Notes: generated by a model from the letters alone, not told the origin. 64,000 bases of DNA from Patescibacteria group bacterium (GCA_041649155.1 JBAZNP010000001.1:673183-737182), one strand, 5' to 3'; shown: positions 4,246-48,875, counted from the first letter of the stretch. Translations and numbers: made by a program.

Positions 4246-4264
4246 ACTATATTTATGGAGGGGT

Positions 4265-33480: not shown

Positions 33481-33652
33481 CAAAAATTGTTGTGGATAAG
33501 CAAATAATTTATTAATATTTTGAATTGACATTCGTTTTTCCGTCGAGGATAATAGAGCTAGACCCTGCAGGTCCATAGCGGTGCGTTTCGTGGGGATATT
33601 TTGCAACTTAGGGTTGCTGTTTAATTAGATTAGTAGGAAAGAGGAGGACGTT

Positions 33653-33856
33653 ATGAGTGATGATTACCAGGATGACCAAACAACCAAGGAAGAGGAAGCT
33701 GTAGAAGAAACAGATGATTCAGACGAGGAAACTGAAGGAGAAGAGACAGAAGCTGCTGAAGCACCTGTAGAAGAGAAAGAAGAAGATGAAACCGAAGAAG
33801 CTGAAACTCCAGAAGAAGAAGACGAAGACGAAGACGAAGATAAAGAAGAAGAGTAA
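33653..33856 (+). CDS. small highly acidic protein (67 aa, D/E-rich)
   Basis: Strong RBS aggaaagaggagg; sequence composed mostly of E/D/T. A terminator follows. Confidence 0.4.
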   Translation: MSDDYQDDQTTKEEEAVEETDDSDEETEGEETEAAEAPVEEKEEDETEEAETPEEEDEDEDEDKEEE

Positions 33857-33884
33857 ACTTGGCTGGATAATATCCAATTTTAAT

Positions 33885-33928
33885 AAAAAAGCTCCGATCG
33901 ATATAGTATTGTAATCGGGGCTTTTTTC
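33885..33928 (+). terminator. Rho-independent terminator
   Basis: aaaaaagctccgatcgatatagtattgtaatcggggctttttt. Confidence 0.6.
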
Positions 33929-33966
33929 TTTGTTCTGGCTTTGATTGCTGTTTTTTATTAAAGCTC

Positions 33967-33995
33967 TTGACAAATAAAATTTGGTATGCTATAAT
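33967..33995 (+). promoter_or_regulatory. near-consensus sigma70 promoter (TTGACA-N17-tgcTATAAT) driving a 400-nt structured leader/ncRNA and the downstream module
   Basis: ttgaca, 17 nt, tataat, with extended -10 TG. Followed by about 400 nt of GC-elevated sequence full of short hairpins before the first ATG at 34403. Confidence 0.6.
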
Positions 33996-34402
33996 CCAAT
34001 GTTCTTAAGGTGAGGGGATTCACAGCGAGAACCCAGTTACCTCAAGAAAATACATTACAATTTAGTGCGATAGTGTGCTGCATAATTCATTTCTTGGCCT
34101 CGTGCCAAGACGTAGGTTCCCCCTCCGCCTGCGGAATTATGTGGCACAGTATTGCACTTTTTTTAAACCTTTGGTTTAAAACCCAGCGTAGCTTTAGCGA
34201 AGTTGGGTAGATGCAATTGCATTTTGACAACTAAATATCCTTCAGAGCAAGTTGCGCTCCGTGCAACTAGTAGAAAGTGAAAGGCGGTAAGTAGAAAGTT
34301 TTACGCCCAGCTTGCTCTGAGGGAATAACACCCTCAAAAGGGCCGCCAAAACGGCGTTTAATTACGCCGCTTACGCGGCACTACATTTGGAGGGATCGTA
34401 GA

Positions 34403-35068
34403 ATGAGAACACTTGTAACTTTGGTCGTTATTATAACGACGCTGTTTCTTTTCTCGCCTAATTCCTACTGCGCCATTGGCGTTGTAGTGGAAGACGGTAA
34501 CGGACCTGTCGCACAGGGTCAGGAAGCTCAAACTAGTATTCAGGAATCTCCTCAAGATAGTGGTGAGCAGGTTGCACAAATGCCAGCTGAGGAACGGGTT
34601 GAAGAGATGGGGACCTTAGTTGACTCTCAAGTTTCGTGTGTCAATTCTGATATTTCGAAATTTAGAGAAGCTCGAGCTAATCTGGCTCGAAGGAATGAGA
34701 GTGTAGCAGTCCACGTTCTTGAACGGAAGGTTGCCAGTCTTCAGTCGAGACTGAGAATATTTAAATCTATGAAGGTTGAAATAAAAGATCTTCGTGAGAG
34801 AATGTTCACTCTCGATGACAAGAAAGATATTGAGGCGCTCAAGAAGCTCGTTGATTCATGGACGAGCAAGTTCGTTGATGATGAGGAATTCACAAAAAAG
34901 CTCCAATCTTATGTCACAAAAGAAGACTTGGAGCAGCAGTTGTCTTCTTATGCCACTAAAACAGAAGTGAATCACATCGGAAATCGAGCGAGAAATTCTT
35001 ATGTGCTTTCATGGTTAGCAATTGTGGGAGTGATTCTTCCTCCGATTTACAAGAAAGTGCGTGGGTAG
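34403..35068 (+). CDS. hypothetical secreted/membrane protein with coiled-coil region
   Basis: Signal-like N-terminus MRTLVTLVVIITTLFLFSPNSYCA, central heptad-like charged region, C-terminal TM YVLSWLAIVGVILPPIY. Confidence 0.45.
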   Translation: MRTLVTLVVIITTLFLFSPNSYCAIGVVVEDGNGPVAQGQEAQTSIQESPQDSGEQVAQMPAEERVEEMGTLVDSQVSCVNSDISKFREARANLARRNESVAVHVLERKVASLQSRLRIFKSMKVEIKDLRERMFTLDDKKDIEALKKLVDSWTSKFVDDEEFTKKLQSYVTKEDLEQQLSSYATKTEVNHIGNRARNSYVLSWLAIVGVILPPIYKKVRG

Positions 35069-35115
35069 ATAAAAAATAAGAATTAAGATAGTTATTGCGA
35101 CGTTGTCGCAAGAGT

Positions 35116-35148
35116 CGGGGCGGCCCATATGGGCCGCCCTCTTTGTGT
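35116..35148 (+). terminator. hairpin terminator/attenuator
   Basis: ggggcggcccatatgggccgcccc-like 9-bp GC stem followed by tctttgtg (weak U-tract). Confidence 0.45.
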
Positions 35149-35217
35149 CCAATAAACTAAACTGTTGTGCAAATAGTTGATTTGTTTTATTATAAATATA
35201 TACAAGCTAGGAGGGAG

Positions 35218-38200
35218 ATGGTCGAATCGGGACAACAGCCACCACAAGAACTCGAAGGATTACGAGGTGATCTTGTTAATTTAAAGCACGAAGAAATTTC
35301 TAGTGAAGAAGATGAAATTTTGGCGGAAATTTCCAAGGCTAGACAAGAGATCGAAAATAATCCTGAAAAATTTGAGGAAATTTTGGCGTCTTTAGATGCT
35401 GATGCACTTCTTTTAAAAAGGATTTTAGAAGAAAAAAAGAAGTTTTGGGGACTTGGTGAAAAAATATCAAATATTACTGTTGATAAAATACAAAATGAAA
35501 AATGGAAAAAAGTACTAAAAATCGGCGCTAAACTTGGCGGGGGAATCATTGCATCAAGGTTGATATCAATAGGTGTTAAGAGTGCTTTTAACGTTTCTAA
35601 TCCGGTAACTGGAGCAATCTCCGGCGCTGCTATGGGGGGGTTCTGGGGCTATGTCAGGGGGAAAGACAAGACTGAATCGGCAAACGCATGGATGAAAGAG
35701 CTGAATATTGAAGAGCTGGAAACTGAAACTGTTGATGAATATTCTAACGAAGATTTAGGAAAAGTTATTGGTATTTTAAAAAATGCAATTGAAGATGGTA
35801 AAAATGGAAGGATGAGAGGCAATGCTGTTTCTAAAATTAATCTAGCTAGGAAGTATCGAGTAGCAAACAAAGAGCTTGTAAGGCGTACTAATGAGATAGA
35901 ACAGGATGAAAGTGGTTCAGTAATCGATCGAATCGATGAATTGAGCCAGGACGCAGAGGTTGAGGGAAAAGCCATATCGGAGTTATCTGGTAGGGAGCAT
36001 GAAGAACTTTATAAAATTCTCACTGAGCGTAATAAATATACGGTTGTTAAAGAAGGAATCAAAGGAGCTCTTGTCGGTGCTGGAGTTGGCTATGTGGCAA
36101 ACTGGGCTATGGATAAGATTTTTCACGTTGATGGTAATTCAGCTAAAGATGCAGCGTTGGAAGCAAAGAAGGAATCAATTAGACAAGCACATGATGCTAA
36201 AATTGATCAATTTGGGAATAATGATCTTCATAGCTTTAATACAGATCAAACTACCCACTTGCAATTAGTTGAAACAAAGGGAGACCTGCATGGGTTTAAT
36301 GACACTGAACTATCAAGCTTTACAGAGTCAGTAAATAAATCCGGTAATGTCTGGGAATTAATAAGGGATAGCCATTCCGATCTTCATAACATTGATTTAC
36401 AGGCTCCAATTGATGGAGAAACGGGCAAAAACATCGGTCAATTCATACTTGAGCATAAGGAAGCATTTTCTAACCTCGATCCGAATATACAAAGAGAAAT
36501 GTTGTCATTTCCAAGCTTAGCAGAAGATATTTTTAAAGCAGCAACTGAAAATTCATCAGCATCTGCGAGCGCAATTTCGGGTAACGCATTAGGGACTTTG
36601 GGTTTGGCTGCAATTGGCAGTGGTGGCATTTATGCTCTCGCGGCTAAAAAAGAAAAAGTGGCTAATGAAAAAATCGAAGCTTACGAGCCTAGACAACAAT
36701 CAGCATCTGGTGGAGGTGATTCTGGTCCTGACGGGACTCCATCTCCTGATGCTGGTGGAACTAGTGAGCAGAAGCCTCGAATTGTAGCGCCTAAAGGCAG
36801 ATTTGACGACAGTAATCTTGGAGAAGGCGGGCTGGCAGAAAACAACGGAGTTAATCCGGTCGGACTGGTTGAAAGCAAACCTGTTGATGTTGAAAAATAC
36901 AATCCGACCAAAGAAGATTACAAAAATGCAGAAGAGTTTTGGAAAATAAATGCGGGCAAAAAAGAAGTTAAAGAACATCTGGACGAATGGTTGTCTATAT
37001 TTATCAATCAAGGCAAATTCAATCTTAGAATTAACGGTGATGAAATTAGCGAAGTCGAAGCTTTAGAAGTTGCTGCATATAAGATTATGATTTTCGAAAA
37101 AGGTTGTGGAATTGGTGAAATTAAGATCGAAAGAAATAATGGTGTGTATTCTGCAGAGGCTGAGATCGTCGCTTTAAATGGTGGTGCTTCTGAAAAACCA
37201 GAATTGTCGCCTCAAGCTGCCGGAGTTGCAAGCGAGGGAGTAAACGCTGAAGCGGAAGACTATGGAAATAAAGAATGGATTTCTCGTGAAGCAGGAGTTG
37301 TTTTGCATGGCGCTCATGGATCAATAGCTGTCAATGCTGGCGATGTAGTGACGGAAAAATTAGGCAATCGTTTTACTATACGTGAATTATATGTCGATGA
37401 AAATCAAGATAATATTAAGATTGTTTGGGAAGATGGAAGTGATAATGTAAACACATCCGATAAATGGTATGAGTTTTTTTGGGAGGCAAAGCAAAGAGAA
37501 GAAGTGGGAGGAGGCACTGGCTTGAGTAACGAAGGCGAAGATGAGCCGGAAGTTTTTGTCCCAAGAAAATTAAATCCTGATAGGGCAGAGGGTTTAATTA
37601 AATCAGCTTCTGAAAATAACACAAATTTAAATATTCCAGAACTTGGTTTACAGAAATTTAATGTTAATAATAGTGATCAAGTTGTTTTGCTTGGCGATTT
37701 AGGAGATAATCTTGACTATTTAAAACAAGACATAGACTTTGGGTTTGTGCGGATAAATGAAATACAGGGAGAGTTAAGGGAAAAGGGTGTACAGACACCG
37801 GATTATAAGTTTTCTATAGAAAATGGTGAAAATTTCATTGAGTCTTATCTTGAGCCATTGAATGTGTTTATGGAAAAAATTTACAATCATTTGCCTCATA
37901 ATAAAGTTGAATTACCGCCAAATATTGAAAGCCAGGATTTAAGTGAAGCAATTGAGCGATTTGAAAGCGGATTCGAGAAGGTTAAAGCAAAATTAGAATT
38001 TTTTGGAGAATCGGCCAAAATTGAAAAGGTTCAAAATTTTTTAAGTCTTGCAAGAGCAATTAGGGATAATGATATCCAAAAGATTAATCCAAAATCAATT
38101 TCAAATGTGATTATGCAAACGTGGCATCCTTATAACAGCAACAAAGAGACTAATTGGATATATAAAAATGCCGAGGTTCTTAACCAACTATTGAAGGAAA

Positions 38201-38712
38201 AACTAAAAGGCTTTGATTACGAGATCATAGATGAAGAAGATTTAATTGGACATGAATTTATTCCATCAATTTGTAGGAGTATTGCATTGGAAGTTCAAAA
38301 TAAAGAGAATAAAGGCAAGATAATAGCGTTAAAGGGAGATAAAATAACAGGGGCAGGCCCTGGGGCATTAATATTCAAAGGAAAATTAGAGTATCCTGCC
38401 TTAACTGTTCTTGGGGTTGATGGTTTCAAGATAGATTTGGGCAAAGGAAAAGAGATATCTTTAGACTTAAATTCTGTTTACCGGATTAAAGACGGAGATA
38501 AGGAAGAATTCATTAAGTTTCATTGGCTGCGCGAAATTCATGGTGAGTATTTAGTAAACCTAGAAGTATCTGATTATGGTGTGCCCTTAAGTAAAGAGGG
38601 ATTAATTAGATTTATTAACAGGTATTCGATTGAGAAGATAGAAGGAGAAGTCGATCTAGGTAAGACCGAGAAAGCATATGCCAATCAATTACTTGAGGAA
38701 TTTCGTAAATAA
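35218..38712 (+). CDS. large hypothetical protein (1164 aa from the ATG at 35218) with three glycine-zipper-like amphipathic/TM segments
   Basis: RBS gagggag then ATG. Segments GGGIIASRLISIGVKSAFNVSNPVTGAISGAAMGGFWGYV, GIKGALVGAGVGYVANWAM and GNALGTLGLAAIGSGGIYALAA. A Gly/Ser/Pro-rich linker. No recognisable enzymatic motif. Confidence 0.5.
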   Translation: MVESGQQPPQELEGLRGDLVNLKHEEISSEEDEILAEISKARQEIENNPEKFEEILASLDADALLLKRILEEKKKFWGLGEKISNITVDKIQNEKWKKVLKIGAKLGGGIIASRLISIGVKSAFNVSNPVTGAISGAAMGGFWGYVRGKDKTESANAWMKELNIEELETETVDEYSNEDLGKVIGILKNAIEDGKNGRMRGNAVSKINLARKYRVANKELVRRTNEIEQDESGSVIDRIDELSQDAEVEGKAISELSGREHEELYKILTERNKYTVVKEGIKGALVGAGVGYVANWAMDKIFHVDGNSAKDAALEAKKESIRQAHDAKIDQFGNNDLHSFNTDQTTHLQLVETKGDLHGFNDTELSSFTESVNKSGNVWELIRDSHSDLHNIDLQAPIDGETGKNIGQFILEHKEAFSNLDPNIQREMLSFPSLAEDIFKAATENSSASASAISGNALGTLGLAAIGSGGIYALAAKKEKVANEKIEAYEPRQQSASGGGDSGPDGTPSPDAGGTSEQKPRIVAPKGRFDDSNLGEGGLAENNGVNPVGLVESKPVDVEKYNPTKEDYKNAEEFWKINAGKKEVKEHLDEWLSIFINQGKFNLRINGDEISEVEALEVAAYKIMIFEKGCGIGEIKIERNNGVYSAEAEIVALNGGASEKPELSPQAAGVASEGVNAEAEDYGNKEWISREAGVVLHGAHGSIAVNAGDVVTEKLGNRFTIRELYVDENQDNIKIVWEDGSDNVNTSDKWYEFFWEAKQREEVGGGTGLSNEGEDEPEVFVPRKLNPDRAEGLIKSASENNTNLNIPELGLQKFNVNNSDQVVLLGDLGDNLDYLKQDIDFGFVRINEIQGELREKGVQTPDYKFSIENGENFIESYLEPLNVFMEKIYNHLPHNKVELPPNIESQDLSEAIERFESGFEKVKAKLEFFGESAKIEKVQNFLSLARAIRDNDIQKINPKSISNVIMQTWHPYNSNKETNWIYKNAEVLNQLLKEKLKGFDYEIIDEEDLIGHEFIPSICRSIALEVQNKENKGKIIALKGDKITGAGPGALIFKGKLEYPALTVLGVDGFKIDLGKGKEISLDLNSVYRIKDGDKEEFIKFHWLREIHGEYLVNLEVSDYGVPLSKEGLIRFINRYSIEKIEGEVDLGKTEKAYANQLLEEFRK

Positions 38713-38745
38713 TTACATTAAGATAAATAAAGTCGGAGGGGAAAA

Positions 38746-39096
38746 ATGAATAACGATGATATGAACAAAGCGGACAATATTGAGGAAACTAATGATATAA
38801 TATTGCTGTATCAGAAAAAAATCATGGAAGAACTAGGGCTTGATAAGCTTTCCGAAAAAGAAAAAGAGGAAGCTGAAGCAAAAATTGCCAACCTTGTTAA
38901 TAACAGGGTGGTGAATATTATTTTGGCGTATTTACCGGAAGAGAAAGCCGAAGAATTTAAAGTTTTGATTGAGCAAGAAAAACTGGATGAAATAATTAAA
39001 TTTTTAAAAACAACAGTGCCTGATATTGAAGTTAAAATTGCAAATGATCTAATGCTGTTAAGAAAAGAATTAATAAGCAAATTGGCGAAAAAATAA
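38746..39096 (+). CDS. hypothetical protein (116 aa, K/E-rich)
   Basis: ORF with RBS ggagggg. Stop overlaps the next start (ATAATG). Confidence 0.4.
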   Translation: MNNDDMNKADNIEETNDIILLYQKKIMEELGLDKLSEKEKEEAEAKIANLVNNRVVNIILAYLPEEKAEEFKVLIEQEKLDEIIKFLKTTVPDIEVKIANDLMLLRKELISKLAKK

Positions 39097-40886
39097 TGTT
39101 ACAAAATACGGAAACAAAATCTAAGTCAGGATTACTGATGGACGCATCTGCTCATTTTAGTGAATCAGGAACTTCTGATAACTTTTTGGAGCTTCAAAAG
39201 GCTCTTAGCGCTGCTTCTGAGGCGGATAAAAATAAACTACGTGCAAGATATGCAGGTAAAGAAGGTTCTGCGGTCGAAGCGTCTCAAGAAAAAGGTATTG
39301 AGACCAGTGAGCAGGAAAAATTTGATGAATTGATGGAGGCTGTGAATAAGTTTGAGGAATTGGCCAAAGAGACTAAGAACATTGAAAAAGAACTTCAGGA
39401 AGCCGAAAGGGCTCATGATGAACATTATAGTAGCTATGCTGGGAAGATTACTTTGGCTGATCAAAATAGAGAGAGGGGATTGGTTACACTTAGAGCTGAA
39501 GTCGGACAAAAGCTCGAAGAAATGATTGTATTAAAGGGTGATATTCTAGACAAATTATCAGATATTAAATCTCATGAACTGAGGGCGAAAACATATGAGC
39601 GATTTGAAAGAAAGAAACCTGATGAAGTAGGAATGTCCAGTGAAGTAAAGTTGGAAACAAAATCCGACAAACATACAGATGATTTAAAGCATCGAACACT
39701 TAATCATAAGGCTAGGGAAATAGTTAAGTCTAATCTTGAAAAAATAGCAAAAAAGAAAACAGAAGCGGAAAAAATTGTCGTAGAAGTGGCCCCTGAAAAT
39801 GTTGAGCCTTCTGTACAGGAAGAAACCGCTGTCGCAAATGATTTGAAAGAAGAAGAAATTAGAAATAATTCAGAAGATCATCTTGCGCCTGGGATTCAAA
39901 TTGGCCGAGAAGAGGAGAGTGAAACACCTAAACCAGAAGAAGTTCAGACTAAGTCTCCAAAGGATATTATTGAACAAAAAGCGGTTATTGATATTCCTGA
40001 ACAAAAACCCCAGCCAGTTGCAGAAAATAAATCTGAAATTAAAGACAAACCATCCGAACCTCCGGTTGAAATCATGGAAATTGGACCAGATGGCGATCCT
40101 GTTAGCGTTACAGATAATGAAGGAGACTTTAGGGAAGACGAGATAACTTTTGTTGATGGTTCGGCTCAGCAGAACATTCCACAATCAAAAGTGGGGGAAA
40201 GTGAAAAGCAAAAAGTAGATTCTTCAGAATTTATCGATAAAATCAGAGAAAAACAATCCGAAATTGCAGAAAGAATGGGACTGGAACTTAAGAAACCAGT
40301 TGCCGAACCGATAAGGAAAATTGACGACTTTTTGCCGCCAACATCCAGAATTGAACAGGCAGCGGAAACAATAGAGCAAGATTTAAATAAACCAATCGCA
40401 GCTGCAAAAGCAGAACCAATTATTGATGAGAAGACTGTGAGTTCTATTCCTGTTATCCCCGAGAAGTCGGGGATCCAAGATAGTGATAGATTAGTAGATT
40501 CCCGCCTACGCGGGAATGACAATGTGGAGGGCGGGAATGACAATGCGAAAATGGCTGAATCGGACGATCAAATATTAACTCAAAATATTCAAACAGCAGA
40601 GCCCGTTGTCCCTGAGCAGAAAATCGAACCGGTTCAGCCGGTTACGGAAGAAGTGGGTAATAATGATGCAGGCAATATGATAGATATCAAGCCGGCAATC
40701 GAGGCAAAAGAAATTCAATTAGAGCAGCCTTTGCCAGAGCAAAAGAGGGGATTCTTCGGGAGAATTTTTGGCGGGAATAACGCTGATAGGCATGGTGCTG
40801 AAGTGATAGCTGGAAAGGGTGATGAATTAACCGCTGACCACATACATCAAATATTGGGTGCTAATGAAGAGAAAGAAGCGGCATAG
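39096..40886 (+). CDS. hypothetical charged/low-complexity protein (596 aa) with an in-frame palindromic-element insertion
   Basis: Coiled-coil-like E/K-rich sequence. Element E7 encodes ...IPEKSGIQDSDRLVDSRLRGNDNVEGGNDNAKM. Confidence 0.4.
   Translation: MLQNTETKSKSGLLMDASAHFSESGTSDNFLELQKALSAASEADKNKLRARYAGKEGSAVEASQEKGIETSEQEKFDELMEAVNKFEELAKETKNIEKELQEAERAHDEHYSSYAGKITLADQNRERGLVTLRAEVGQKLEEMIVLKGDILDKLSDIKSHELRAKTYERFERKKPDEVGMSSEVKLETKSDKHTDDLKHRTLNHKAREIVKSNLEKIAKKKTEAEKIVVEVAPENVEPSVQEETAVANDLKEEEIRNNSEDHLAPGIQIGREEESETPKPEEVQTKSPKDIIEQKAVIDIPEQKPQPVAENKSEIKDKPSEPPVEIMEIGPDGDPVSVTDNEGDFREDEITFVDGSAQQNIPQSKVGESEKQKVDSSEFIDKIREKQSEIAERMGLELKKPVAEPIRKIDDFLPPTSRIEQAAETIEQDLNKPIAAAKAEPIIDEKTVSSIPVIPEKSGIQDSDRLVDSRLRGNDNVEGGNDNAKMAESDDQILTQNIQTAEPVVPEQKIEPVQPVTEEVGNNDAGNMIDIKPAIEAKEIQLEQPLPEQKRGFFGRIFGGNNADRHGAEVIAGKGDELTADHIHQILGANEEKEAA
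40455..40545. repeat. palindromic mini-element E7, in-frame inside the CDS
   Basis: atccccgagaagtcggggatc ... attcccgcctacgcgggaatgacaatgtggagggcgggaatgacaatg has the same arms as E6 (cccgcgaaggcgggaat). Confidence 0.6.
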
Positions 40887-40963
40887 AATCTTATTAACCT
40901 CACCTAACCCTGCCTACCGGCAGGCAGGCTCTCCTTGAAAAGGAGAGGGAGCAAAAAAACAAA

Positions 40964-43501
40964 ATGACAGACGATTATTATAATGGATATGAAAGTTCAA
41001 GTGGATCAAATTGGTGGATTTGGTTGGTTGTTTTTGTTGTCGCAATTATTCTGATTTATATTATTTATCAGAAGATAAGAAAGTCAGTATTACGAAAAAA
41101 CCAAATTAATTTGACTAAAGACTGGACAATGTACAAGGTTCTAGTGCCAAGAGAAAGGCATGCAGGAGAAGATGATCAACGCAAAAATTTTCAGGAAATG
41201 TTGTCAGTTATTGAACCTTTTTATGCAAACTTGAATGCAATGTTTGATAACACTGTCTCAAAAAGACTTCAGGGGCAGGATCATATTTCGCTGGAATTAA
41301 TTGCTAAAGATAATTTAATAAGTTTCTACATCGGTTGCTCCAAGAAAATATCTAATAGTATTTTAAAAAATCTCCATGCCCAATATCCTTATGCAGAAAT
41401 TACTGAAGATAAAAACTATTCAGTTTTTCCAAATAAGCCGTTAAAAATTGATATTGCCAATTTGGGGCTAATAAAAAGATATATTTTTCCCCTAAAAACA
41501 TACAAAACATTGGAAGAGGATCCCCTTAATGCTTTATCTAATTCACTATCGAAGTTGTCCGAGGATGAGCTGGCAGGGGTGCAATTTTTACTAAGGCCAA
41601 CCACAGGTGTCTGGAGAACGGCGGGAGAGAGGGCGGCGTTCAATATTCAGCACGGAAAATCCCGTGTTTCTCATTCAAACTCAGCTACAGTTAGAGCAGG
41701 GGAGGCATTTTTTAATTTTCTAGGTTCCGCGACGCAAACTGCGCAGGGAAAAGGGGAAGGCGAGCACTCCGAGCTATATGATCCAAAGAACCCAATGAAG
41801 TTAACTCCAATGCAGGAAAGTCAAATAAAGCTTTTAGGAGAAAAAGTCTCCAAGCTTGGATTTGAGTGTCAAATAAGAATTGTGAGTGTTGCTCCCACTA
41901 TGGAAAAAGCTCGCCAAAATACTAAAGAAATCGCTTCAATATTCAATCAATTTAATTCTCCTGACTCCAATGGGCTGAATATCAAATATCCAAAAAAGAG
42001 ATCAGAAGACATAGCGAACTATGTTTTCAGGCTTTTCGGTAGGGGACCGAGATTAATTTTAAATACTGAGGAGTTATCTTCCCTATATCATTTACCAAAT
42101 CGTTTTATTGAAACCCCAAATATTGCGTGGCTGTTAGCTAAAAAAGAGCCACCTCCATCAAATTTGCCAAAAGAAGGGACAATAATCGGAAACAGTGTAT
42201 TTAGGGGGAGTGAACTTCCAATTAAAATCAAAGAGTTAGATCGGCTGAGGCACGTTTATATGATAGGTAAAACCGGTGTTGGTAAAACCGTGCTTTTCGA
42301 AAATATGATCCTTCAGGATATAAAAGAAGGAAAGGGTGTCTGCTACCTTGATCCAAATGGAGATGCGGCAGAATACATTTTAAGCCGGATACCAAAAGAA
42401 AGAGCCGACGATGTAATTTACTTCAATCCAGCTGATATAGAGAGGCCAATGGGATTGAATTTGCTTGAATGGAAGACTCCTGAGCAGAGAGATTTCTTAG
42501 TTCAGGAAGCTATTCAAATATTTTATAAACTTTTTGATCCGGGGCAGACTGGAATTGTTGGACCGCAGTTTGAACACTGGATGAGAAATGCAGCCTTAAC
42601 TTTGATGGCTCATCCAGAAGGTGGAACCCTTATTGATATTCCAAGATTGTTTACTGACCCTGATTTTGAAAAGGACCGTGTGAAATATGTGCAAGATCCA
42701 GTAGTGAAAAACTTTTGGGAGAAGCAAATGGCTAAAACTGCTGATTTCCATAAGTCAGAAATGTTAAATTATTTCACTTCAAAATTTGGTCGCTTTATGA
42801 CCAATGATATGATGAGAAATATTTTGGGTCAGACTAAGTCATCATTTGACTTCAGGGATGTGATGGATAACAAGAAAATTCTGATCTGCAATTTATCAAA
42901 AGGATTAATAGGGGAGATCAACGCTTTTCTTCTGGGTATGATAATCGTATCCAAGATAGCGATCGGCGCTTTTTCCCGTCAGGATTTAACAGAAGAAGAG
43001 AGAATTCCCTTTTATCTTTATGTTGATGAATTCCAGAACTTTATTACAGATGTTTTTGCAACTATTCTTTCTGAGTCGAGAAAATACAAATTATCTTTAA
43101 ATATCACAAACCAGTACATTGCGCAGCTGGATGAAAAAATACGTGATGCTGTTATTGGTAATGCCGGCACTTTGGTGTCATTCAGAATTGGTGCGGCGGA
43201 TGCGGACTTTTTGGTTAAAGAATTTGATCCTCTTAAGCCTGACGATATGACCAATATTGATAAGTATAATTTTTATATAAAAATGCTGATTGATGGCGCA
43301 CCGACAAAGCCGTTTAATGGTCAGAGTTTGGCTCCCGATCCCAATGCAAATAGTCAGCTTAGCGCAGCTATAAAAGAATTATCAAGACTGAAATATGGGA
43401 AGCCAAAAGATCAAGTTAATAATGAAATATTAGATAGAACTAAAGTTGACTCTATAGATTTACCAGGGATTAGTTCTACGGATGCAGTGAAAACAGCATA
43501 G
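40964..43501 (+). CDS. TraG/VirD4/TraD-like (type IV coupling protein-like) P-loop ATPase with N-terminal TM and a 400-aa N-terminal domain
   Basis: TM WWIWLVVFVVAIILIYIIY. Walker A IGKTGVGKT (near 42264). Walker B/TraG-D_C-like YLYVDEFQNF. Arginine-finger/Q motif SESRKYKLSLNITNQYIAQL. Ends with IGNAGTLVSFRIGAADADFL. Confidence 0.6.
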   Translation: MTDDYYNGYESSSGSNWWIWLVVFVVAIILIYIIYQKIRKSVLRKNQINLTKDWTMYKVLVPRERHAGEDDQRKNFQEMLSVIEPFYANLNAMFDNTVSKRLQGQDHISLELIAKDNLISFYIGCSKKISNSILKNLHAQYPYAEITEDKNYSVFPNKPLKIDIANLGLIKRYIFPLKTYKTLEEDPLNALSNSLSKLSEDELAGVQFLLRPTTGVWRTAGERAAFNIQHGKSRVSHSNSATVRAGEAFFNFLGSATQTAQGKGEGEHSELYDPKNPMKLTPMQESQIKLLGEKVSKLGFECQIRIVSVAPTMEKARQNTKEIASIFNQFNSPDSNGLNIKYPKKRSEDIANYVFRLFGRGPRLILNTEELSSLYHLPNRFIETPNIAWLLAKKEPPPSNLPKEGTIIGNSVFRGSELPIKIKELDRLRHVYMIGKTGVGKTVLFENMILQDIKEGKGVCYLDPNGDAAEYILSRIPKERADDVIYFNPADIERPMGLNLLEWKTPEQRDFLVQEAIQIFYKLFDPGQTGIVGPQFEHWMRNAALTLMAHPEGGTLIDIPRLFTDPDFEKDRVKYVQDPVVKNFWEKQMAKTADFHKSEMLNYFTSKFGRFMTNDMMRNILGQTKSSFDFRDVMDNKKILICNLSKGLIGEINAFLLGMIIVSKIAIGAFSRQDLTEEERIPFYLYVDEFQNFITDVFATILSESRKYKLSLNITNQYIAQLDEKIRDAVIGNAGTLVSFRIGAADADFLVKEFDPLKPDDMTNIDKYNFYIKMLIDGAPTKPFNGQSLAPDPNANSQLSAAIKELSRLKYGKPKDQVNNEILDRTKVDSIDLPGISSTDAVKTA

Positions 43502-43562
43502 ATAGTTAATAAATGATAGTCTAATGATAGTCTATAGTTAATGGACTTCATAGAAAAAATCG

Positions 43563-43596
43563 CCTGTTATTTCAAAGGCGGTTTTTTAATTAAAAA
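43563..43596 (+). terminator. Rho-independent terminator
   Basis: aaaaaatcgcctgttatttcaaaggcggtttttt. Confidence 0.55.
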
Positions 43597-43670
43597 ATGT
43601 TGACGTCTGATCAATTATGTGGTAGGATAATTGCGTAAAAGGGGATAAAAAAACAAACAATCGGAGCATT

Positions 43671-44177
43671 ATGCCTCAAGAAAAAGAATTACAAGCGATT
43701 AAACACTTACTTGATTCTGCTGAAAATAATATCAGGCAGGTAAAAAGTATACTATTTGCGTCTGAAATTACAAAAAAAGCTCAAGATCTTGAGGAAAGTG
43801 GAGATGGCACAGTGATAGAAGGCGTGTTCGATGGTGAGAATATGATCGGTCCTGATAAGACAAAGTATCCAACACCTCCAAACTATGCGTCAAAATCAAA
43901 ACTTATTCCCGGTGATGTATTAAAATTGACAATACTTCCAGACGGATCATTTCTTTTCAAGCAAATTGGCCCGATAAAAAGAAAGAAGATCATTGGTGAG
44001 CTTGAAGAAATATCAGAAGGAAAGTTTATTGTTAATGCAGAAGGCAGGAAATATAGAGTTCTCCTTGCATCTGTGACATATTTTAAGGCTAATAATGGGG
44101 ACAAATTAACCATTATAGTGCCAGAAAAAGATGAGTCAGAGTGGGCAGCAGTAGAAAATATATTAGAAGGTAAATAA
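43671..44177 (+). CDS. hypothetical protein (168 aa)
   Basis: ORF with RBS ggag. No recognisable motif. Confidence 0.35.
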   Translation: MPQEKELQAIKHLLDSAENNIRQVKSILFASEITKKAQDLEESGDGTVIEGVFDGENMIGPDKTKYPTPPNYASKSKLIPGDVLKLTILPDGSFLFKQIGPIKRKKIIGELEEISEGKFIVNAEGRKYRVLLASVTYFKANNGDKLTIIVPEKDESEWAAVENILEGK

Positions 44178-44178
44178 A

Positions 44179-45213
44179 ATGACAACAATAAAGAATTTTA
44201 GTCCCTACAAAATTGTTAAAAAGGCAATGGAAAGCTTAAAACCAAATGAGGTTAAAGTTATTGCAGGTCGTTTTGGTATTGATGAAGACAGAAAGACTCT
44301 TTCCTCTATTGGTAAAGAATTAAATCTTTCGAGAGAAAGAATTCGTCAAATTGAAAAAGAGGGACTTAAAAAGCTTGCATCTAAAATCGTCGATCGTAAA
44401 AATGAATATCTTGAATTAATCATTCAATCATTTAAGCAAAGCGGTGGAATTGCCAAGCATGAAAATATCGCAAATAAGTTTTTGGAAGAGAGTTTGAAAT
44501 CAAATAAAAATGAATTTAATGCTTTGCATTTGATTTTCTTTCTCATGCCGGAACTTAAGAAGATCGATAAGACTAGAGAACTGGAAGCAAGCTGGGTCAT
44601 TGCTTCTTTATCTAAAGATGAAGTTCTTGGAATTATTAATAATTGGGTTGATCATCTACAAAAAGTGAAAAAACCAACTACGATAGATATTCTCGTAAAA
44701 GAAAATCCTAGTCATAATAAATATGAAATGACCTTTTTGTCCGAATTACCTTACATCAGTAAAAAGCTGGTTAAAACAGAAAATGACTTTATTGGATTAG
44801 CATCTTGGCCTGAAGTAAATCCTAAAAATGTGCGCGATAAAATTTACTATATCCTAAAAAAAGAAGGTAAACCTGTTCACTTTGAAATAATTGCAAAGAA
44901 GATTAATGAAGAAAAATTTTCAAAGAAAAAAGTTGTAAAAGCCACTGTTCACAATGAATTAATTGCTGACGACAGATTTATTCTAGTAGGCAGAGGAATT
45001 TATGCACTTAGAGAATGGGGATACGAGCCCGGAACAGTGAGAGATATTATAAAAAATATTTTAGATATTCATAATCATTCTATGAAGGTTGATGAAATTG
45101 TTTCAGAAGTTCTAAAACAAAGAACTGTTAAGAAAAACACTATTTTGATTAACTTGCAAACAAAGTCGGATTTTAAAAAAGCCGGCAAAGATAGCTACGA
45201 ACTCGCTAAGTAA
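44179..45213 (+). CDS. sigma-70 region-4-like HTH protein with 270-aa C-terminal extension (not a canonical sigma factor)
   Basis: VKVIAGRFGIDEDRKTLSSIGKELNLSRERIRQIEKEGLKKLASKI matches the sigma70 region 4.2 HTH. No region 2. Start overlaps the upstream stop. Confidence 0.5.
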   Translation: MTTIKNFSPYKIVKKAMESLKPNEVKVIAGRFGIDEDRKTLSSIGKELNLSRERIRQIEKEGLKKLASKIVDRKNEYLELIIQSFKQSGGIAKHENIANKFLEESLKSNKNEFNALHLIFFLMPELKKIDKTRELEASWVIASLSKDEVLGIINNWVDHLQKVKKPTTIDILVKENPSHNKYEMTFLSELPYISKKLVKTENDFIGLASWPEVNPKNVRDKIYYILKKEGKPVHFEIIAKKINEEKFSKKKVVKATVHNELIADDRFILVGRGIYALREWGYEPGTVRDIIKNILDIHNHSMKVDEIVSEVLKQRTVKKNTILINLQTKSDFKKAGKDSYELAK

Positions 45214-45306
45214 TTAGCAAAAACATTGAGAATGATGTAAAATAGTGTTAGAAAGTAAACGCGATATAATTTGGCGTTTACTTGTAAAACAAAATGGGGG
45301 AGCTCT

Positions 45307-48300
45307 ATGCAGATTTTTTTATTTCTAATTTTAGTTGTAATTGTGTTAGCCGCAGGCTATCTTATTTTGATTTTAACTAAAATCAAAAATGCAAAAGCCA
45401 AGCAGGAGTGGATGGAGTCGCAAGAATATACGACCTTGCGAATTGATGTACCTAAAAATAATGACAAAAAACCACTTTCTGCCGAACAAATGTTTGCTTC
45501 CATTCATGGAATATATTCTGAAAATTCTCTTTTTCAGAACCATTTGAGTTTTGAAATAGTTGCCCGAGACAAATTCATTCAGTTTTATGTGTATGTGCCG
45601 AAACATATTAAGGACTTTGTTGAGGGCCAAATCTATGCTCAGTATCCAGCAGTCGAAATTCATGAAGTTCCTGATTATACGGAGTCTGTAAAGCCGACAG
45701 ATGGAATTAATTTTGCCGTTTGCGACTTAAACATGACAAAACCGGATGTCTATCCGGTGAAATTTTTTACTGATTTTGAGGTTGACCCATTGAGTGGTAT
45801 TACTTCTGTTATGACTAAGCTTAATCAGGGTGAAGAAGTATGGTTTCAATTGGTCATGAAGCCGGTAGGGGATGAGTGGCAAGAAAAAGGCAATAGCATC
45901 GTTTCGGCAGTCAGGGCCGGACGTAAACCAGGTGGGGTGGGCATTTCTAGCACTATATTAGGTCATTTAAAACAATTTTCAAAGGCTTTTATTCAGCAGG
46001 CGATTCAGCCTGGAGTCGAGACAGAAGAAAGCAAAAGCGAGGTTAAACTTCCAGCTACTGTGGAGGAGGCTCTTAAAGGGATTGAACAAAAAATAGTTAA
46101 ATTAGGGTTTGAGACAAAAATTCGTATTCTTTCAATCTCGAACGATCCCATTTCAGCTAAAGTGAGATGCCAAAGTGTCTCAGCTGCTTTTAAACAATTC
46201 AATACAACAAATTTAAATGGTTTTAAGGTCGGGGAAATAGTCACGAACAATTATGATACATGGAAAGACTTTTCTCAAAGGTCATTTGAAGATGCGGGTA
46301 ATATTCTTAATATCGCCGAGCTTGCTTCTATTTATCATCTTCCTCATGAAACTGTAGAAACACCAAACATTGTTTGGTCGGGCGCAAAAAAGGGTGAACC
46401 ACCGGCAAATTTGCCTTTCAGAGAAAATATATCCGAAGAGGTTTTGACCGTTATTGGCATGACTAATTTTAGAAGCACTTTTCATGAATTCGGTATAAAA
46501 AATGATGACAGAAGAAGGCATATCTATATTGTGGGTAAGTCTGGTACTGGTAAATCAACTCTGATTGAAAATATGGCTGTTGATGATGTAGTTAGGGGCA
46601 AAGGCGTAATAATTGTTGATCCTCATGGTGAATTGGCAGATAAAGTTATATCTTGTGTACCTGATTATCGAATTAATGATGTTATTGTTTTTGATCCTGC
46701 TGATCGAGCATACCCGATTGGTTTTAACCTGTTGGAACACGTAGAGGATGATTTTAAGGGCATGGTTGCTTCTGGATTTGTAGGGATATTTAAAAAAATC
46801 TTCGGTGATTCATGGGGCCCCCGTTTGGAGCATATCTTAAGAAATACTGTTTTGGCATTGCTTGATTTTACAGAATCGACAATGCTTGATATTCCACGAA
46901 TGCTTACGGATAACCGTTTTAGAGATCGTGTAGTTGAAAAAGTTAAGGATCCGGTAATCAGGGACTTCTGGGTAAATGAATTTGCTCAATATGATAGTAA
47001 GTTCAGAACTGAAGCAGTGTCTCCGATTTTGAATAAAGTCGGTCAATTTTTGGCGACTGCTACTATTCGAAATATTGTTGGCCAGTCAAAATCAAAAATC
47101 AATATCAGGGAAATTATGGATCAGAAGAAGATATTGATTGTAAATCTTTCCCGTGGAAAAATTGGCGAAGACAATTCCGCTTTGCTCGGTGCTATGATGA
47201 TTACCAAAATTCAGCTTGCAGCAATGAGTCGTGCTGATGTTACGGCAGATAAGAGAGCAGATTGTTTCTTATATGTTGACGAGTTTCAGAACTTTGCTAC
47301 AGAATCTTTTGCAACCATTTTGTCAGAAGCGAGAAAATATAATCTATGTTTGACGATGGCTAACCAGTACATTGAGCAGATGTCTGAAGAGGTAAGAAGT
47401 GCTGTGTTCGGTAATGCCGGCACTATTGCGGCATTTAGGGTTGGCGGAGCTGACGCTGATTTTCTGGTTAAGGAATTTGAGCCTGTATTTGATGCAAACG
47501 ATATGGTTAATCTTGATAAATATAACATCTATATTAAACTTTTGATTGACGGTATTTCTTCGCCGGCTTTTTCGGCTAAGACTTTACCGCCGGTTCAAAA
47601 ACTTACCGGTAATGTTGAGAAAATTGTCAATCAATCGCACGAAAAATACTCTTCTTTGCGTTCAGTGATAGAAGAAAAGATTATCAATAGGGACAAGGAA
47701 GAAGAAGCTCTTCTTAAAGCTGAAGCTGAAGCTTTTAAACAAGGTGGATTAGAAGCTTTATTAGTAAAAAAAGCTGATCATTCTACGGTTCATGTTGCGT
47801 CGCCGGAAAAGAAATCCGATGCGTTTGGTGAAGCGCCAAAGGAGACGGGGGATAGTCTTAAAAGAGAAAGTGTGCCAGAAAGAGTAACGTCAGAAAATAC
47901 AGAAAATACTGAGGACTATATCAAGAAGGAATCCAAGCCGCGTGTTTTTAGATATCAAAATATAATTGGCGATAAAATCTATAAAGAGCAAACCGCGAGA
48001 GGGGGAGTAAAGTGGTATGTTGGAGAGGAAATCGATCTTGCTAAGCAGAAAGAGCTTGGTGTGGAAGTTTTGAAAGATGGCGAAAAAATGATTGAATTGG
48101 CAAACAAGGTCAAAAAATCTGCCGTTAACGTAAGCCATGAGAGAACGGAGGATCCAAAAGATACAGATTTAAACAAAACCGATTCTACTATTAAAGATCG
48201 CGAAACAGGATCAAAGGAAACTAAAAAAGTAGAAGATGAAAAATCTTTAACACCTTCTAAAGAACCTGATGTGATCATTCAGGAAGAAAAAGGCGAGAAA

Positions 48301-48393
48301 GCAAAAGAAACTACTACCAAAGATAATAAAACCAATATTGTTAATCATGCCGATGCGAAACACCTAACAGAAGGTGAAGAAACAGTTTTGTAA
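45307..48393 (+). CDS. second TraG/VirD4/TraD-like ATPase (paralog) with C-terminal 330-aa charged extension
   Basis: RBS gggggag then ATG. TM IFLFLILVVIVLAAGYLILIL. Walker A VGKSGTGKS (near 46535). FLYVDEFQNF. SEARKYNLCLTMANQYIEQM. FGNAGTIAAFRVGGADADFL. N-domain shares YAQYP(A/Y)(V/A)EI with the first copy. Confidence 0.6.
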   Translation: MQIFLFLILVVIVLAAGYLILILTKIKNAKAKQEWMESQEYTTLRIDVPKNNDKKPLSAEQMFASIHGIYSENSLFQNHLSFEIVARDKFIQFYVYVPKHIKDFVEGQIYAQYPAVEIHEVPDYTESVKPTDGINFAVCDLNMTKPDVYPVKFFTDFEVDPLSGITSVMTKLNQGEEVWFQLVMKPVGDEWQEKGNSIVSAVRAGRKPGGVGISSTILGHLKQFSKAFIQQAIQPGVETEESKSEVKLPATVEEALKGIEQKIVKLGFETKIRILSISNDPISAKVRCQSVSAAFKQFNTTNLNGFKVGEIVTNNYDTWKDFSQRSFEDAGNILNIAELASIYHLPHETVETPNIVWSGAKKGEPPANLPFRENISEEVLTVIGMTNFRSTFHEFGIKNDDRRRHIYIVGKSGTGKSTLIENMAVDDVVRGKGVIIVDPHGELADKVISCVPDYRINDVIVFDPADRAYPIGFNLLEHVEDDFKGMVASGFVGIFKKIFGDSWGPRLEHILRNTVLALLDFTESTMLDIPRMLTDNRFRDRVVEKVKDPVIRDFWVNEFAQYDSKFRTEAVSPILNKVGQFLATATIRNIVGQSKSKINIREIMDQKKILIVNLSRGKIGEDNSALLGAMMITKIQLAAMSRADVTADKRADCFLYVDEFQNFATESFATILSEARKYNLCLTMANQYIEQMSEEVRSAVFGNAGTIAAFRVGGADADFLVKEFEPVFDANDMVNLDKYNIYIKLLIDGISSPAFSAKTLPPVQKLTGNVEKIVNQSHEKYSSLRSVIEEKIINRDKEEEALLKAEAEAFKQGGLEALLVKKADHSTVHVASPEKKSDAFGEAPKETGDSLKRESVPERVTSENTENTEDYIKKESKPRVFRYQNIIGDKIYKEQTARGGVKWYVGEEIDLAKQKELGVEVLKDGEKMIELANKVKKSAVNVSHERTEDPKDTDLNKTDSTIKDRETGSKETKKVEDEKSLTPSKEPDVIIQEEKGEKAKETTTKDNKTNIVNHADAKHLTEGEETVL

Positions 48394-48617
48394 AACTGAG
48401 AGCTTAGATTTTAATTTAAGGGATTTTTTCGATTTTTCGGCAGGGGATAATGAAATCGGGGGAGTGCCTTATTTTTCATTTTATTCTATTTTTTATTTCT
48501 CAACAAAAAGTACCCCCTCTTTCTTTTCTGAAATCATTAAAATAAAATGAAAAATAGAATAAAAAAAAGAGGCTTATTTTATTTTATAATTTTATTATTT
48601 TAATGTAATTATTATTG

Positions 48618-48704
48618 TCATTTCGACCCCGTGCCCGTGAAACGGTTGGAGAAATCTTAATTAAGATGGGTTGAAAGATCCCTCCACGTTGGTTGGGATG
48701 ACAA
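48618..48704. repeat. palindromic mini-element E8
   Basis: tgtcatttcgaccccgtgcccgtgaaacggttgg...gatccctccacgttggttgggatgacaa. The terminal part is the reverse complement of E9. Confidence 0.6.
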
Positions 48705-48847
48705 TAGTGAGTTATATTGACCAAGAGGACTGGTTCGGAGAGCTGAGAAAGGCTTCTAGGGGGCTTTGCATGAGTCTGATATGAGAACTATTATGTGTCC
48801 TCGGTACAATAAATACTGGATTGCGTCGTGGCGATTTTGCATGAATA

Positions 48848-48875
48848 ATGTCGCATAACATGCATTATGCGACAT
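48848..48875. promoter_or_regulatory. dif-like 28-bp site (11-6-11) in the convergent intergenic region
   Basis: ATGTCGCATAA-CATGCA-TTATGCGACAT: perfectly palindromic 11-bp arms whose inner ends match dif/XerCD arms (…CGCATAA / TTATG…). Located exactly where gene orientation switches from + to -. Confidence 0.4.

Follow-up and report, generated by a model that had tools for sequence, protein, structure and literature searches.

We analyzed a 64,000-nucleotide stretch of DNA from a Patescibacteria group bacterium (GCA_041649155.1, JBAZNP010000001.1:673183-737182), hereafter the window, in which a block of plus-strand genes between positions 33967 and 48393 encodes two tandem P-loop ATPases of the type IV coupling-protein family, ATPase1 and ATPase2. 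The window is chromosomal DNA of ~37% GC from a Patescibacterium related to Candidatus Berkelbacteria, and the closest named relatives of its proteins are found in Berkelbacteria or "Patescibacteria group" metagenome-assembled genomes. A 195,686-bp ENA metagenome contig carries the region in identical form; its public gene calls were used, together with Shine-Dalgarno context, to choose among start codons.

The ATPases sit in a housekeeping stretch of the chromosome. The 5′ flank of the block encodes a release factor, Pth, the ribosomal proteins L1, L10 and L7/L12, and tRNA-guanine transglycosylase (TGT); the 3′ flank, on the opposite strand, encodes DUF1290, SecF, SecD, an RluD-like protein and RmuC. 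Farther 5′ in the window are genes for aminoacyl-tRNA synthetases, NusG, L11, Mfd, DprA, topoisomerase I and RecR. Pfam scans took in 46 of the larger open reading frames (ORFs) of the 64-kb window, all eight genes of the block included, and among these neither VirB-like, relaxase or integrase families nor VirB4, VirB6 or a type IV secretion system (T4SS) pilin found a match. No tRNA gene was found and no compositional break was seen in the window. A previous sequence-only reading had likewise reported no VirB-like or relaxase components nearby and a layout unlike any described conjugation locus, and both statements agree with our scans. That reading spoke of seven genes while itself listing eight; all eight plus-strand genes are present, and its ORF coordinates were correct throughout. 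The lengths of 1181 and 1040 aa that it gave for two of the proteins correspond to maximal ORFs, for which we favour the starts ATG 35218 (1164 aa) and ATG 45307 (1028 aa). The features of the block and of the unit preceding it are as follows.

33525–33927, plus strand: small separate unit 5′ of the block, with a promoter-like site, an acidic 67-aa ORF, and a hairpin with a T-run
33967–33995, plus strand: near-consensus sigma-70-type promoter (promoter scan)
34002–34048, plus strand: G-rich 5′ hairpin, GGUGAGGGG (fold)
34060–34167, plus strand: three-way-junction RNA motif (alignment, covariance model)
34168–34402, plus strand: rest of the structured 5′ region (fold, nhmmer)
34403–35068, plus strand: gene for a 221-aa protein (ORF)
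35117–35140, plus strand: GC-rich hairpin (hairpin scan)
35218–38712, plus strand: gene for a giant protein of 1164 aa, or of 1181 aa from GTG 35167 (ORF)
38746–39096, plus strand: gene for a 116-aa DUF5663 protein (Pfam)
39096–40886, plus strand: gene for a 596-aa charged protein (ORF)
40964–43501, plus strand: ATPase1 gene, 845 aa (Pfam, motifs)
43561–43628, plus strand: hairpin with a T-run, then a promoter-like site (hairpin and promoter scans)
43671–44177, plus strand: gene for a 168-aa protein (ORF, predicted fold)
44179–45213, plus strand: gene for a 344-aa DNA-binding protein (Pfam)
45307–48393, plus strand: ATPase2 gene, 1028 aa, or 1040 aa from TTG 45271 (Pfam, motifs)

Two full-length ATPases of the coupling-protein type

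ATPase1 and ATPase2 are 36% identical over 831 residues. Their Walker A motifs read GKTGVGKT and GKSGTGKS, and both proteins carry YVDEFQNF and SxRKY...NQYIxQ. In an alignment of 27 sequences of both paralogues, G435, G438, G440, K441, D688, E689 and the motif positions were invariant, which bears out the earlier description of two paralogous P-loop ATPases with these motifs. The assignment to the TraG/VirD4 family also stands, as Pfam models scored above their curated cut-offs: T4SS-DNA_transf (PF02534) for ATPase1 (29.3 against a cut-off of 20.1), TrwB_AAD_bind (PF10412) for ATPase2 (37.1 against 20.5), and TraG-D_C (PF12696) for the two proteins (23.3 and 25.0 against 22). FtsK_SpoIIIE was not among the Pfam models passing thresholds. 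The NCBIfam TraD, TraG and CD1115 equivalogs scored far below their cut-offs, giving only sub-threshold fragments, CedD and TraD included, and therefore no named sub-family applies. The best PDB sequence relatives of the ATPases are DotL and TrwB, and the predicted fold of ATPase1 falls among a VirB4, TrwB, HerA and DotL cluster in a structure search with the whole model, in which matches to the motor domain dominate.

Each protein has a single transmembrane (TM)-like segment near its N-terminus, at residues 12–40 in ATPase1 and 7–41 in ATPase2 according to a hydropathy window, with basic residues after it. Because positively charged residues follow the TM helix, we infer that each protein is anchored once in the membrane and that its N-domain and motor face the cytoplasm. 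In ATPase1, a DUF8128 N-domain (~45–400) precedes a coupling-protein-type P-loop motor that contains an all-helical insert (~506–635); ATPase2 has the same architecture and, in addition, a charged C-terminal tail of ~250 aa whose length varies among relatives. One N-terminal TM segment and a large N-domain had been noted before, and both are present, the N-domain measuring ~360 aa. On these models and motifs, the two proteins are assigned as full-length paralogues to a DUF8128 sub-family within the VirD4/TraG/TrwB branch of the FtsK-HerA superfamily.

Plasmid and phage relatives share the N-domain

The sequence-only reading had set the N-domain apart from canonical VirD4/TraD. A departure from all known coupling proteins is not supported: the domain is DUF8128, which also occurs in relaxase-adjacent ATPases of Bacillaceae plasmids. 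Precomputed Pfam annotation places PF26449 (DUF8128) in the N-terminal ~360 residues of both ATPases and of nearly all their relatives; the local Pfam scan gave no PF26449 match for either ATPase. An N-domain profile aligned to a Shouchella plasmid ATPase with a probability of 97.9% (hhalign, E = 4.5e-13, 258 columns), and a search of PDB sequences with the same profile returned nothing meaningful. Searching the literature for "DUF8128" retrieved no paper.

Matches by tblastn that reach into the N-domain came from plasmids of Bacillus, Priestia, Peribacillus, Shouchella, Streptomyces and Natrinema, the Streptomyces record being one without annotation; a match on the Sulfolobus plasmid pARN3 begins at residue 233. 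On the Shouchella and Peribacillus plasmids, the homologue is located between primase and replication-relaxation-family genes, immediately 5′ of the latter, and conjugal-transfer genes come next; one of the two plasmids has TcpE, and the other has a VirB4-like ATPase. Among phage proteins, PHROG 5156 (phrog_5156), whose members include SPO1 gp27.4 and proteins of CP-51 and Bacillus phage G (gp156), matches both ATPases end to end (E = 6e-91 and 4e-97). SPO1 gp27.4 and orf201 of phage 0305phi8-36 were read in 2012 as coupling ATPases beside MobC-like relaxases, and their N-domain was linked to the pING TraG family (PMC3357382).

A conserved core between TGT and SecDF

We fetched 80 loci from species-representative genomes by alignment of ATPase1 relatives and mapped all window proteins onto them. 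Where ATPase1 was at least 62% identical to that of the window, the order ATPase1, 168-aa gene, 344-aa gene, ATPase2, (DUF1290), SecF, SecD was found wherever the contig reached. At 47–55% identity, the order ran L10, L7/L12, TGT, ATPase1, sometimes the 168-aa gene, ATPase2, and then SecF and SecD; the 344-aa gene was mostly absent, and none of the four genes upstream of ATPase1 was present. Relatives at or below 55% lack the upstream genes, and in them TGT lies just 5′ of ATPase1, with at most one small ORF between the two. The backbone of L10, L7/L12, TGT, ATPase1, ATPase2, SecF and SecD holds down to ~47% ATPase1 identity. Relatives at 39–42% (Paceibacteria-like, Gribaldobacteria and Terrybacteria) have no ATPase2 nearby; the Terrybacteria gene is surrounded by genes for IMPDH, a P-type ATPase, a family-4 glycosyltransferase, Ddl, an aminoacyl-tRNA synthetase and a DD-carboxypeptidase, and no relaxase or T4SS gene lies beside this orthologue. 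The 120 best ATPase1 relatives, out of more than 2,300 matches, are 62–96% identical.

Gene order thus conserved delineates a core of ATPase1, the 168-aa gene and ATPase2 between TGT and SecDF, and its distribution marks this three-gene unit as an ancient one that appears vertically inherited in Patescibacteria. Because of the synteny across the 80 loci, the four upstream genes are best described as a sub-clade-specific insert, that is, a cassette placed between TGT and ATPase1 in one Berkelbacteria-like sub-clade. The block had been proposed to form one co-oriented module or operon; the comparison of loci instead splits it into a conserved core and a hypervariable cassette. Synteny of the gene set in relatives accordingly holds for the core and fails for the four upstream genes.

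The 344-aa gene, which occurs in relatives with at least 53% ATPase1 identity and in all relatives at 62% or more with room downstream, had been described as an orphan sigma region-4 helix-turn-helix (HTH) protein. The Sigma70_r4 HTH is indeed there (residues 16–66, Pfam), and is joined by an additional HARE-HTH domain (residues 223–280).

An OB-fold-like protein encoded between the ATPases

The structure predicted for the 168-aa protein consists of a long N-terminal helix and two barrels of the oligonucleotide/oligosaccharide-binding (OB) or cold-shock type, and includes a five-stranded OB barrel similar to cold-shock and S1 domains. The model suggests that the protein is probably a binder of single-stranded nucleic acid. 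With a hidden Markov model of the family, we located it directly 3′ of ATPase1 in 44 loci. The two genes are 0–12 nt apart in seven distant loci, in several of which ATPase2 follows within ~20–100 nt, an arrangement that we take to be a compact operon of ATPase1, the 168-aa gene and ATPase2.

A second scan searched metagenome contigs with the 168-aa family itself; of the best 80 loci, eight were too short to judge. A coupling-type ATPase lies 5′ of the 168-aa homologue in 24 of the 80, some of them at 38–45% ATPase1 identity. At other loci, the OB-fold gene is followed by genes for DnaX (clamp loader) and, in the locus covered by a Pfam scan, the DnaB helicase, as at L163 (5986–10621) and also at L155, L162, L165, L153 and L158; this context suggests a general role in handling single-stranded nucleic acid beyond the ATPases. 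About 11 of the 80 loci show yet another row, belonging to a different Patescibacteria lineage and seen at L099 (4536–10520), L101, L106, L164 and L127, in which genes for an FtsQ-like (POTRA) protein, DUF1290, the 168-aa homologue and a T2SSE-family ATPase precede an array of paralogous genes. The array comprises four to five small genes, one with a borderline T4SS_pilin match, and adjoins the 350-aa PilT/VirB11-like ATPase. By the families of their neighbours, these other contexts of the 168-aa family also appear related to nucleic acids or to T4SSs. DUF1290 is, in addition, the gene just 3′ of ATPase2 in the window (48994–49368, minus strand).

A variable cassette upstream of ATPase1

The four upstream genes fill positions that recur among relatives with the cassette: a protein of 220–480 aa, a DUF5663-type protein (107–250 aa, median 130), a protein of 650–2,000 aa and a charged protein of 200–600 aa, and then ATPase1. 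The members themselves are largely orphans. The 221-aa protein begins with a signal-peptide-like hydrophobic segment, continues as a coiled-coil-like region and has another hydrophobic stretch at its C-terminus, in keeping with its earlier description as a signal-peptide and coiled-coil protein; it had no tblastn match in any related locus and no family match in Pfam or NCBIfam.

The giant protein is acidic and combines a conserved N-terminal module (~45–510) with an orphan C-terminal half. Glycine-zipper-like internal segments, which had been reported for the 1181-aa form, are present, and no signal peptide was found. Against 1.84 billion cluster representatives it retrieved 31 relatives, nearly all of which cover only residues ~45–510; one 77%-identical relative extends to residue 695. 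Searches of Pfam, NCBIfam, PHROGs and PDB profiles revealed no known domain. It aligns at 24–31% identity in ~10 related loci, and the proteins at the giant position in relatives share features and not alignable sequence. A signal peptide is absent from them, internal hydrophobic or glycine-rich segments are present in most, and their net charges range from +11 to −119, all but one being negative and most below −18.

The acidic 116-aa protein belongs to the DUF5663 family (Pfam E = 1.6e-4; precomputed PF18908), the only broadly alignable member of the cassette, which was found in 29 loci, usually directly beside a giant gene (>650 aa). By sequence comparison, the giant protein belongs to a very small family of orphans whose partner is a DUF5663 protein. 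The 116-aa and 596-aa genes, which had been described as translationally coupled, share one base (TAATG). The 596-aa protein is highly charged and of low complexity, with a single tblastn relative and a cluster (c6) of three members.

In distant lineages, a shorter low-complexity ORF occupies the position of the 596-aa gene, right before ATPase1. Such small ORFs were considered as homologues of the 116-aa and 596-aa proteins and rejected, since BLAST clustering and reading of the sequences show no relationship. They encode 90–150 aa, are mostly of low complexity, and end at or overlap the ATPase1 start (for example L070 9570–9992, L072 6579–6992, L075 9624–9992 and L080 9555–9914). A C-terminal helical motif, approximately AIEVAKK..DP.LLD.LHD.L, is common to eight of them, which may represent a conserved small partner of ATPase1; the 596-aa protein holds the equivalent position in the window.

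A structured RNA at the start of the cassette

The region between the promoter and the 221-aa gene (34002–34402) folds with −163 kcal/mol, compared with −109 ± 5.8 kcal/mol for shuffled sequences (z = −9.3). The strong structure proposed for a 400-nt leader is therefore real; the term leader fits less well, for the first ~165 nt resemble a separate small RNA. The full 440 nt are conserved only in the two closest relatives (nhmmer), and the G-rich sequence of the 5′ hairpin (34002–34048) recurs after the promoter in several relatives. Many loci retain a core of ~110 nt (34060–34167), which frequently occurs twice in tandem. Further hairpins of the 5′ region lie at 34161–34223, 34237–34326 and 34333–34399.

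Twenty-three copies of the core align as a three-way junction whose apical hairpin carries the invariant sequence GGUUCCCCCUCCGCC, with the invariant, anti-Shine-Dalgarno-like apical loop UCCCCCUCC. RNAalifold detected compensatory changes in 23 of 29 pairs. When pairs were counted across the alignment, 94.4% of cells paired, against 27–46% in slid controls, and none of 500 shuffles reached the observed value in any of five pairing measures. A covariance model found the motif in 20 related loci and in the window, where the copy scores 98.5 bits. Every copy scores highest on the plus strand; minus-strand matches of 26–40 bits overlie the plus-strand copies and reflect near-palindromic stems. 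Rfam yielded no match in the window at gathering thresholds and, in a search of 33850–34450, none at E ≤ 10 within 34002–34349, and we regard the motif as previously undescribed and without an Rfam relative.

All loci with the RNA motif also have the variable cassette. By this co-occurrence, the RNA goes with the cassette and not with the ATPases, and cassette and RNA together form what appears to be a separate, fast-evolving orphan unit. A U-run, read from the alignment, directly follows the basal stem in ~16 of the 23 copies, and the copies that lack it are mostly the first of a tandem pair. Because the motif and its U-run follow a consensus promoter located ~60 nt upstream, the motif is probably the body and terminator of an independent small RNA of ~165 nt, or else an attenuator. 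By inspection of the sequence, the loop CCCUCC is complementary to the GGAGGG Shine-Dalgarno sequence of the 221-aa gene (34389–34394) and also to that of the giant gene.

Gram-positive bacteria have regulatory small RNAs with C-rich loops, such as RsaE/RoxS. Like these, the RNA described here would combine a stable hairpin, a C-rich anti-Shine-Dalgarno-like loop, its own promoter and a U-run end; unlike them, it forms a three-way junction and often occurs in tandem copies, and the two have no sequence or Rfam relationship. As a separate observation, TT(G/A)ACAA followed a few bases on by TA(A/T)ATA occurs 60–80 nt 3′ of the RNA motif in several relatives (window 34226–34245, L004, L007, L014 and L016), at a spacing too short for a sigma-70 promoter.

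Promoters and terminators within the block

The promoter at 33967–33995 (TTGACA, 17 nt, extended TG, TATAAT) has 12 of 12 matches and is the best of the region in a promoter scan. What had been called a near-consensus site is in fact a perfect extended sigma-70 consensus, and several relatives have a similar promoter sequence 5′ of the RNA element. Between the 221-aa and giant genes, the hairpin at 35117–35140 has 10 bp, 9 of them G-C, and a weak T-tail; it is possibly a terminator or a processing site. ATPase1 is separated from the 168-aa gene by a hairpin at 43561–43580 with a T-run to 43587, followed by a promoter-like site at 43600–43628 (TTGACG, 17 nt, TG-TAGGAT), and the whole (43561–43628) may be an internal terminator and restart. 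A comparable hairpin with a T-run 3′ of ATPase1 is found in 9 of 41 loci, and distant lineages have a spacing of 0–12 nt; as the hairpin is unconserved, we claim no fixed operon boundary there. From the signals just described, one operon spanning 33967–48393 seems unlikely.

Directly after the ATPase1 stop, at 43513–43535, two tandem copies of the 11-mer ATGATAGTCTA are separated by a single base; they sit just 5′ of the hairpin and T-run. A 67-aa ORF (33653–33856), 61% of whose residues are Asp or Glu, lies between TGT and the main promoter and was called as a gene on the public contig. It has its own promoter (33525–33553, 11 of 12 matches) and a hairpin/T-run terminator (33891–33927), and could be a spurious ORF inside a small transcript.

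Other features of the window

Just 3′ of ATPase2 (~48400–50000), gene orientation switches from all-plus to all-minus. Over the same interval the GC skew falls from ~+0.2 to ~0 with no clear inversion, a change that could mark a replication-related strand switch. A replication terminus near 50 kb was considered and rejected, as the skew change is too weak and coincides with the switch in gene strand. Type IV pilus and competence genes lie 19–40 kb 5′ of the block and away from the ATPases (447–932, 1551–2291, 4235–4843 and 15354–16430); they comprise three genes with a prepilin N-methylation motif, one of them T2SSG-like, and DprA. On the minus strand, 55848–61472 encodes a 1874-aa protein with a Big_13 bacterial Ig-like domain, fibronectin-III repeats and, near the C-terminus, a purple-acid-phosphatase N-domain, which is likely a large surface protein unrelated to the block. 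A solitary 187-aa protein (13389–13952) matches the PaaX central/Cas2-like domain; no other Cas family turned up in the ORFs scanned, a search that did not extend to CRISPR repeats.

Possible functions of the ATPase pair

Of 3,035 Patescibacteria genomes, Quinonero-Coronel et al. (2025, PMC12102498) count 2,918 with VirD4-like homologues, 5,713 in all or about two each, and place only 148 of these homologues near virB4; the authors state that exaptation "cannot be ruled out". Such a distribution does not support the suggestion of a "lineage-specific" apparatus, and the window ATPases fit a chromosomal, relaxase-less, coupling-protein-like pair that nearly all Patescibacteria carry. The essential T4SS cluster of Southlakia is reported to include no recognisable coupling protein or relaxase (Wang et al. 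2023, PMC10633639). The T4SS is essential in the one species tested yet relaxase-less. The two coupling-protein paralogues rank with the best-conserved large proteins of Patescibacteria, and no role is assigned to them.

We tentatively favour, at a little under even chances, a membrane-anchored coupling or translocase pair that handles nucleic acid, probably with a T4SS encoded elsewhere. By analogy with their family, the ATPases would form membrane-associated ring motors, possibly mixed rings, that bind and pump a nucleic-acid or nucleoprotein substrate, DNA or RNA, in either direction. Binding of single-stranded nucleic acid would fall to the OB-fold protein, and DNA recognition or regulation to the HTH protein, which is inserted between the core genes in the sub-clade of the window. 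Most likely, the motors would pass the substrate to or from a relaxase-less T4SS of the Gram-positive type encoded elsewhere. The nucleic-acid motor is suggested because the plasmid relatives adjoin relaxases; the connection to a T4SS is indirect, through the 168-aa family beside a T2SSE-family ATPase and pilin-like arrays and through the relaxase-less essential T4SS already reported. Several points weigh against this proposal. The scanned ORFs of the window include no T4SS genes, so that neither ATPase is genetically linked there to a relaxase or to T4SS channel genes, and ring formation and nucleic-acid binding are carried over from the family. Coupling-protein homologues are found in more genomes (2,918) than VirB4 (2,417), and the t4cp gene of Southlakia is not essential, whereas its T4SS genes are (PMC12102498). 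In the second scan, a DnaX-like gene lies 3′ of the 168-aa homologue in 31 of the 80 loci, five of which have both the DnaX-like gene and the ATPase; the family therefore appears linked to coupling ATPases across deep divergence and not exclusively, and part of that linkage could be inherited gene order.

A rather unlikely alternative is a housekeeping translocase independent of any T4SS, in which the pair, together with the OB-fold protein, would pump nucleic acid on its own in the manner of FtsK or HerA, possibly for DNA uptake with type IV pili and ComEC, for chromosome- or replication-linked handling, or for import of host nucleic acid. The excess of coupling-protein homologues over VirB4, their rarity near virB4 and the non-essential Southlakia gene (all from PMC12102498) speak for such a pump, as do the purely housekeeping flanks of the window and the Terrybacteria locus alike, the DnaX-like gene that often adjoins the 168-aa family, and the type IV pilin-like proteins and DprA encoded in the window. 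However, the models passing thresholds are those of coupling proteins and not FtsK_SpoIIIE, the closest relatives with DUF8128 outside Patescibacteria adjoin relaxases in conjugation-type loci, a stand-alone pump with a single TM helix would have no evident channel partner, and comEC is dispensable for growth in Southlakia (PMC12857230). We think it improbable that the ATPase1/OB-fold/ATPase2 operon is a cytoplasmic-membrane motor moving nucleic acid in the absence of a relaxase, for example by bringing in host RNA or DNA delivered through a T4SS or pilus, with the OB-fold protein as a putative single-strand clamp. Patescibacteria cannot make nucleotides and depend on host cells. If true, an import motor would account for the retention of two coupling-protein paralogues throughout nearly the whole phylum, and would supply the missing mechanism for the feeding on host RNA reported in 2026, whose authors call the uptake route unresolved (bioRxiv 10.64898/2026.06.21.733656).

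The cassette invites a different account, in which all eight genes would form a host-interaction unit, in line with what the sequence-only reading had suggested, with the giant protein as a T4SS substrate, the DUF5663 protein as its chaperone or adaptor and the ATPases as receptors, ATPase2 recruiting through its charged tail. Small acidic adaptors such as IcmS/IcmW and VirE1 deliver effectors to coupling proteins. The cassette lies immediately 5′ of ATPase1 in every locus that has it, the DUF5663 gene is usually directly beside the giant gene, and the giant proteins are strongly acidic, mostly with internal hydrophobic or glycine-rich segments, and are without a signal peptide yet hypervariable, as expected of exposed or host-contact proteins. 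Nevertheless, most lineages keep the ATPase pair without the cassette, and the cassette therefore cannot define the function of the ATPases; moreover, the RNA motif co-occurs with the cassette and not with the ATPases, a strong promoter belonging to the cassette precedes it and a hairpin follows its first gene, and no secretion signal or known effector domain was found by Pfam, NCBIfam and PDB profile searches. We consider effector coupling a long shot, while a role of the upstream cassette itself in host interaction is possible. Descent from a decayed integrated conjugative element or prophage is very improbable: plasmids and phages do encode homologues with the architecture of these ATPases, and T4SS genes and a relaxase are missing nearby, but the location between TGT and SecDF is constant across the whole class, the catalytic motifs are intact at 62–96% identity (best 120 of thousands of matches), and the scanned ORFs include no integrase, while neither a tRNA gene nor a compositional break was seen. 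Scarcely any weight can be given to an anti-phage defence system built on HerA-like ATPases. PADLOC gave matches only at the level of the P-loop or HTH, covering just the shared P-loop core or the HTH, and a defence system was therefore rejected; there is no nuclease, Sir2 or other effector partner, and near-universal, syntenic, vertically inherited genes are unlike defence islands.

Comparison with known systems

Coupling proteins usually have two or more TM helices. The ATPases described here differ from VirD4, TraG, TrwB and DotL in having one TM helix and a DUF8128 domain of ~360 aa between anchor and motor, and in being encoded as two tandem, chromosomal, vertically inherited paralogues that no relaxase or T4SS gene adjoins. 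VirB4 has no N-terminal TM helix. The window proteins gave no VirB4 match in Pfam or NCBIfam beyond a P-loop-only fragment, and the N-domain profile reached a probability of just 0.4% against the VirB4-like protein of the Shouchella plasmid. Long Foldseek alignments to the VirB4 homologue TrwK have a TM-score of just 0.30, and a distant structural relationship between the modelled N-domain and that of TrwK is conceivable.

The DUF8128 ATPases of Bacillaceae plasmids and phages resemble the window pair in full-length architecture, with a tblastn coverage of 66–88% of the query. The Bacillaceae plasmid members are annotated as "DUF87 domain-containing protein" and the pARN3 member as TraG-like. 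Identity to the window ATPases is only 22–30%, and several phage members reportedly have no TM helix, unlike those studied here. The mobile-element members adjoin relaxase, primase, conjugal-transfer or MobC-like genes, whereas the window pair consists of single-copy genes of a chromosomal core with no relaxase.

The RNA motif and the cassette of giant and DUF5663 proteins are separate small discoveries that bear on regulation, and possibly on host contact, in Berkelbacteria. For the ATPases, the closest precedent is the set of homologues counted by Quinonero-Coronel et al., which are VirD4-like, number about two per genome and lie mostly far from virB4; the window pair, also two per genome and with thousands of relatives, almost certainly belongs to that set. 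Neither DUF8128 nor the tandem operon is mentioned in the text of that paper (PMC12102498), and neither is the OB-fold partner or the adjacent cassette. The OB-fold operon, the N-domain shared with plasmids and the PilT/VirB11-like context make the vague label "T4CP homologue" (type IV coupling protein homologue) testable. The family itself had thus been noted bioinformatically; new here are the operon with an OB-fold protein, the sharing of DUF8128 with plasmid ATPases next to relaxases, the structured RNA motif and the orphan cassette.

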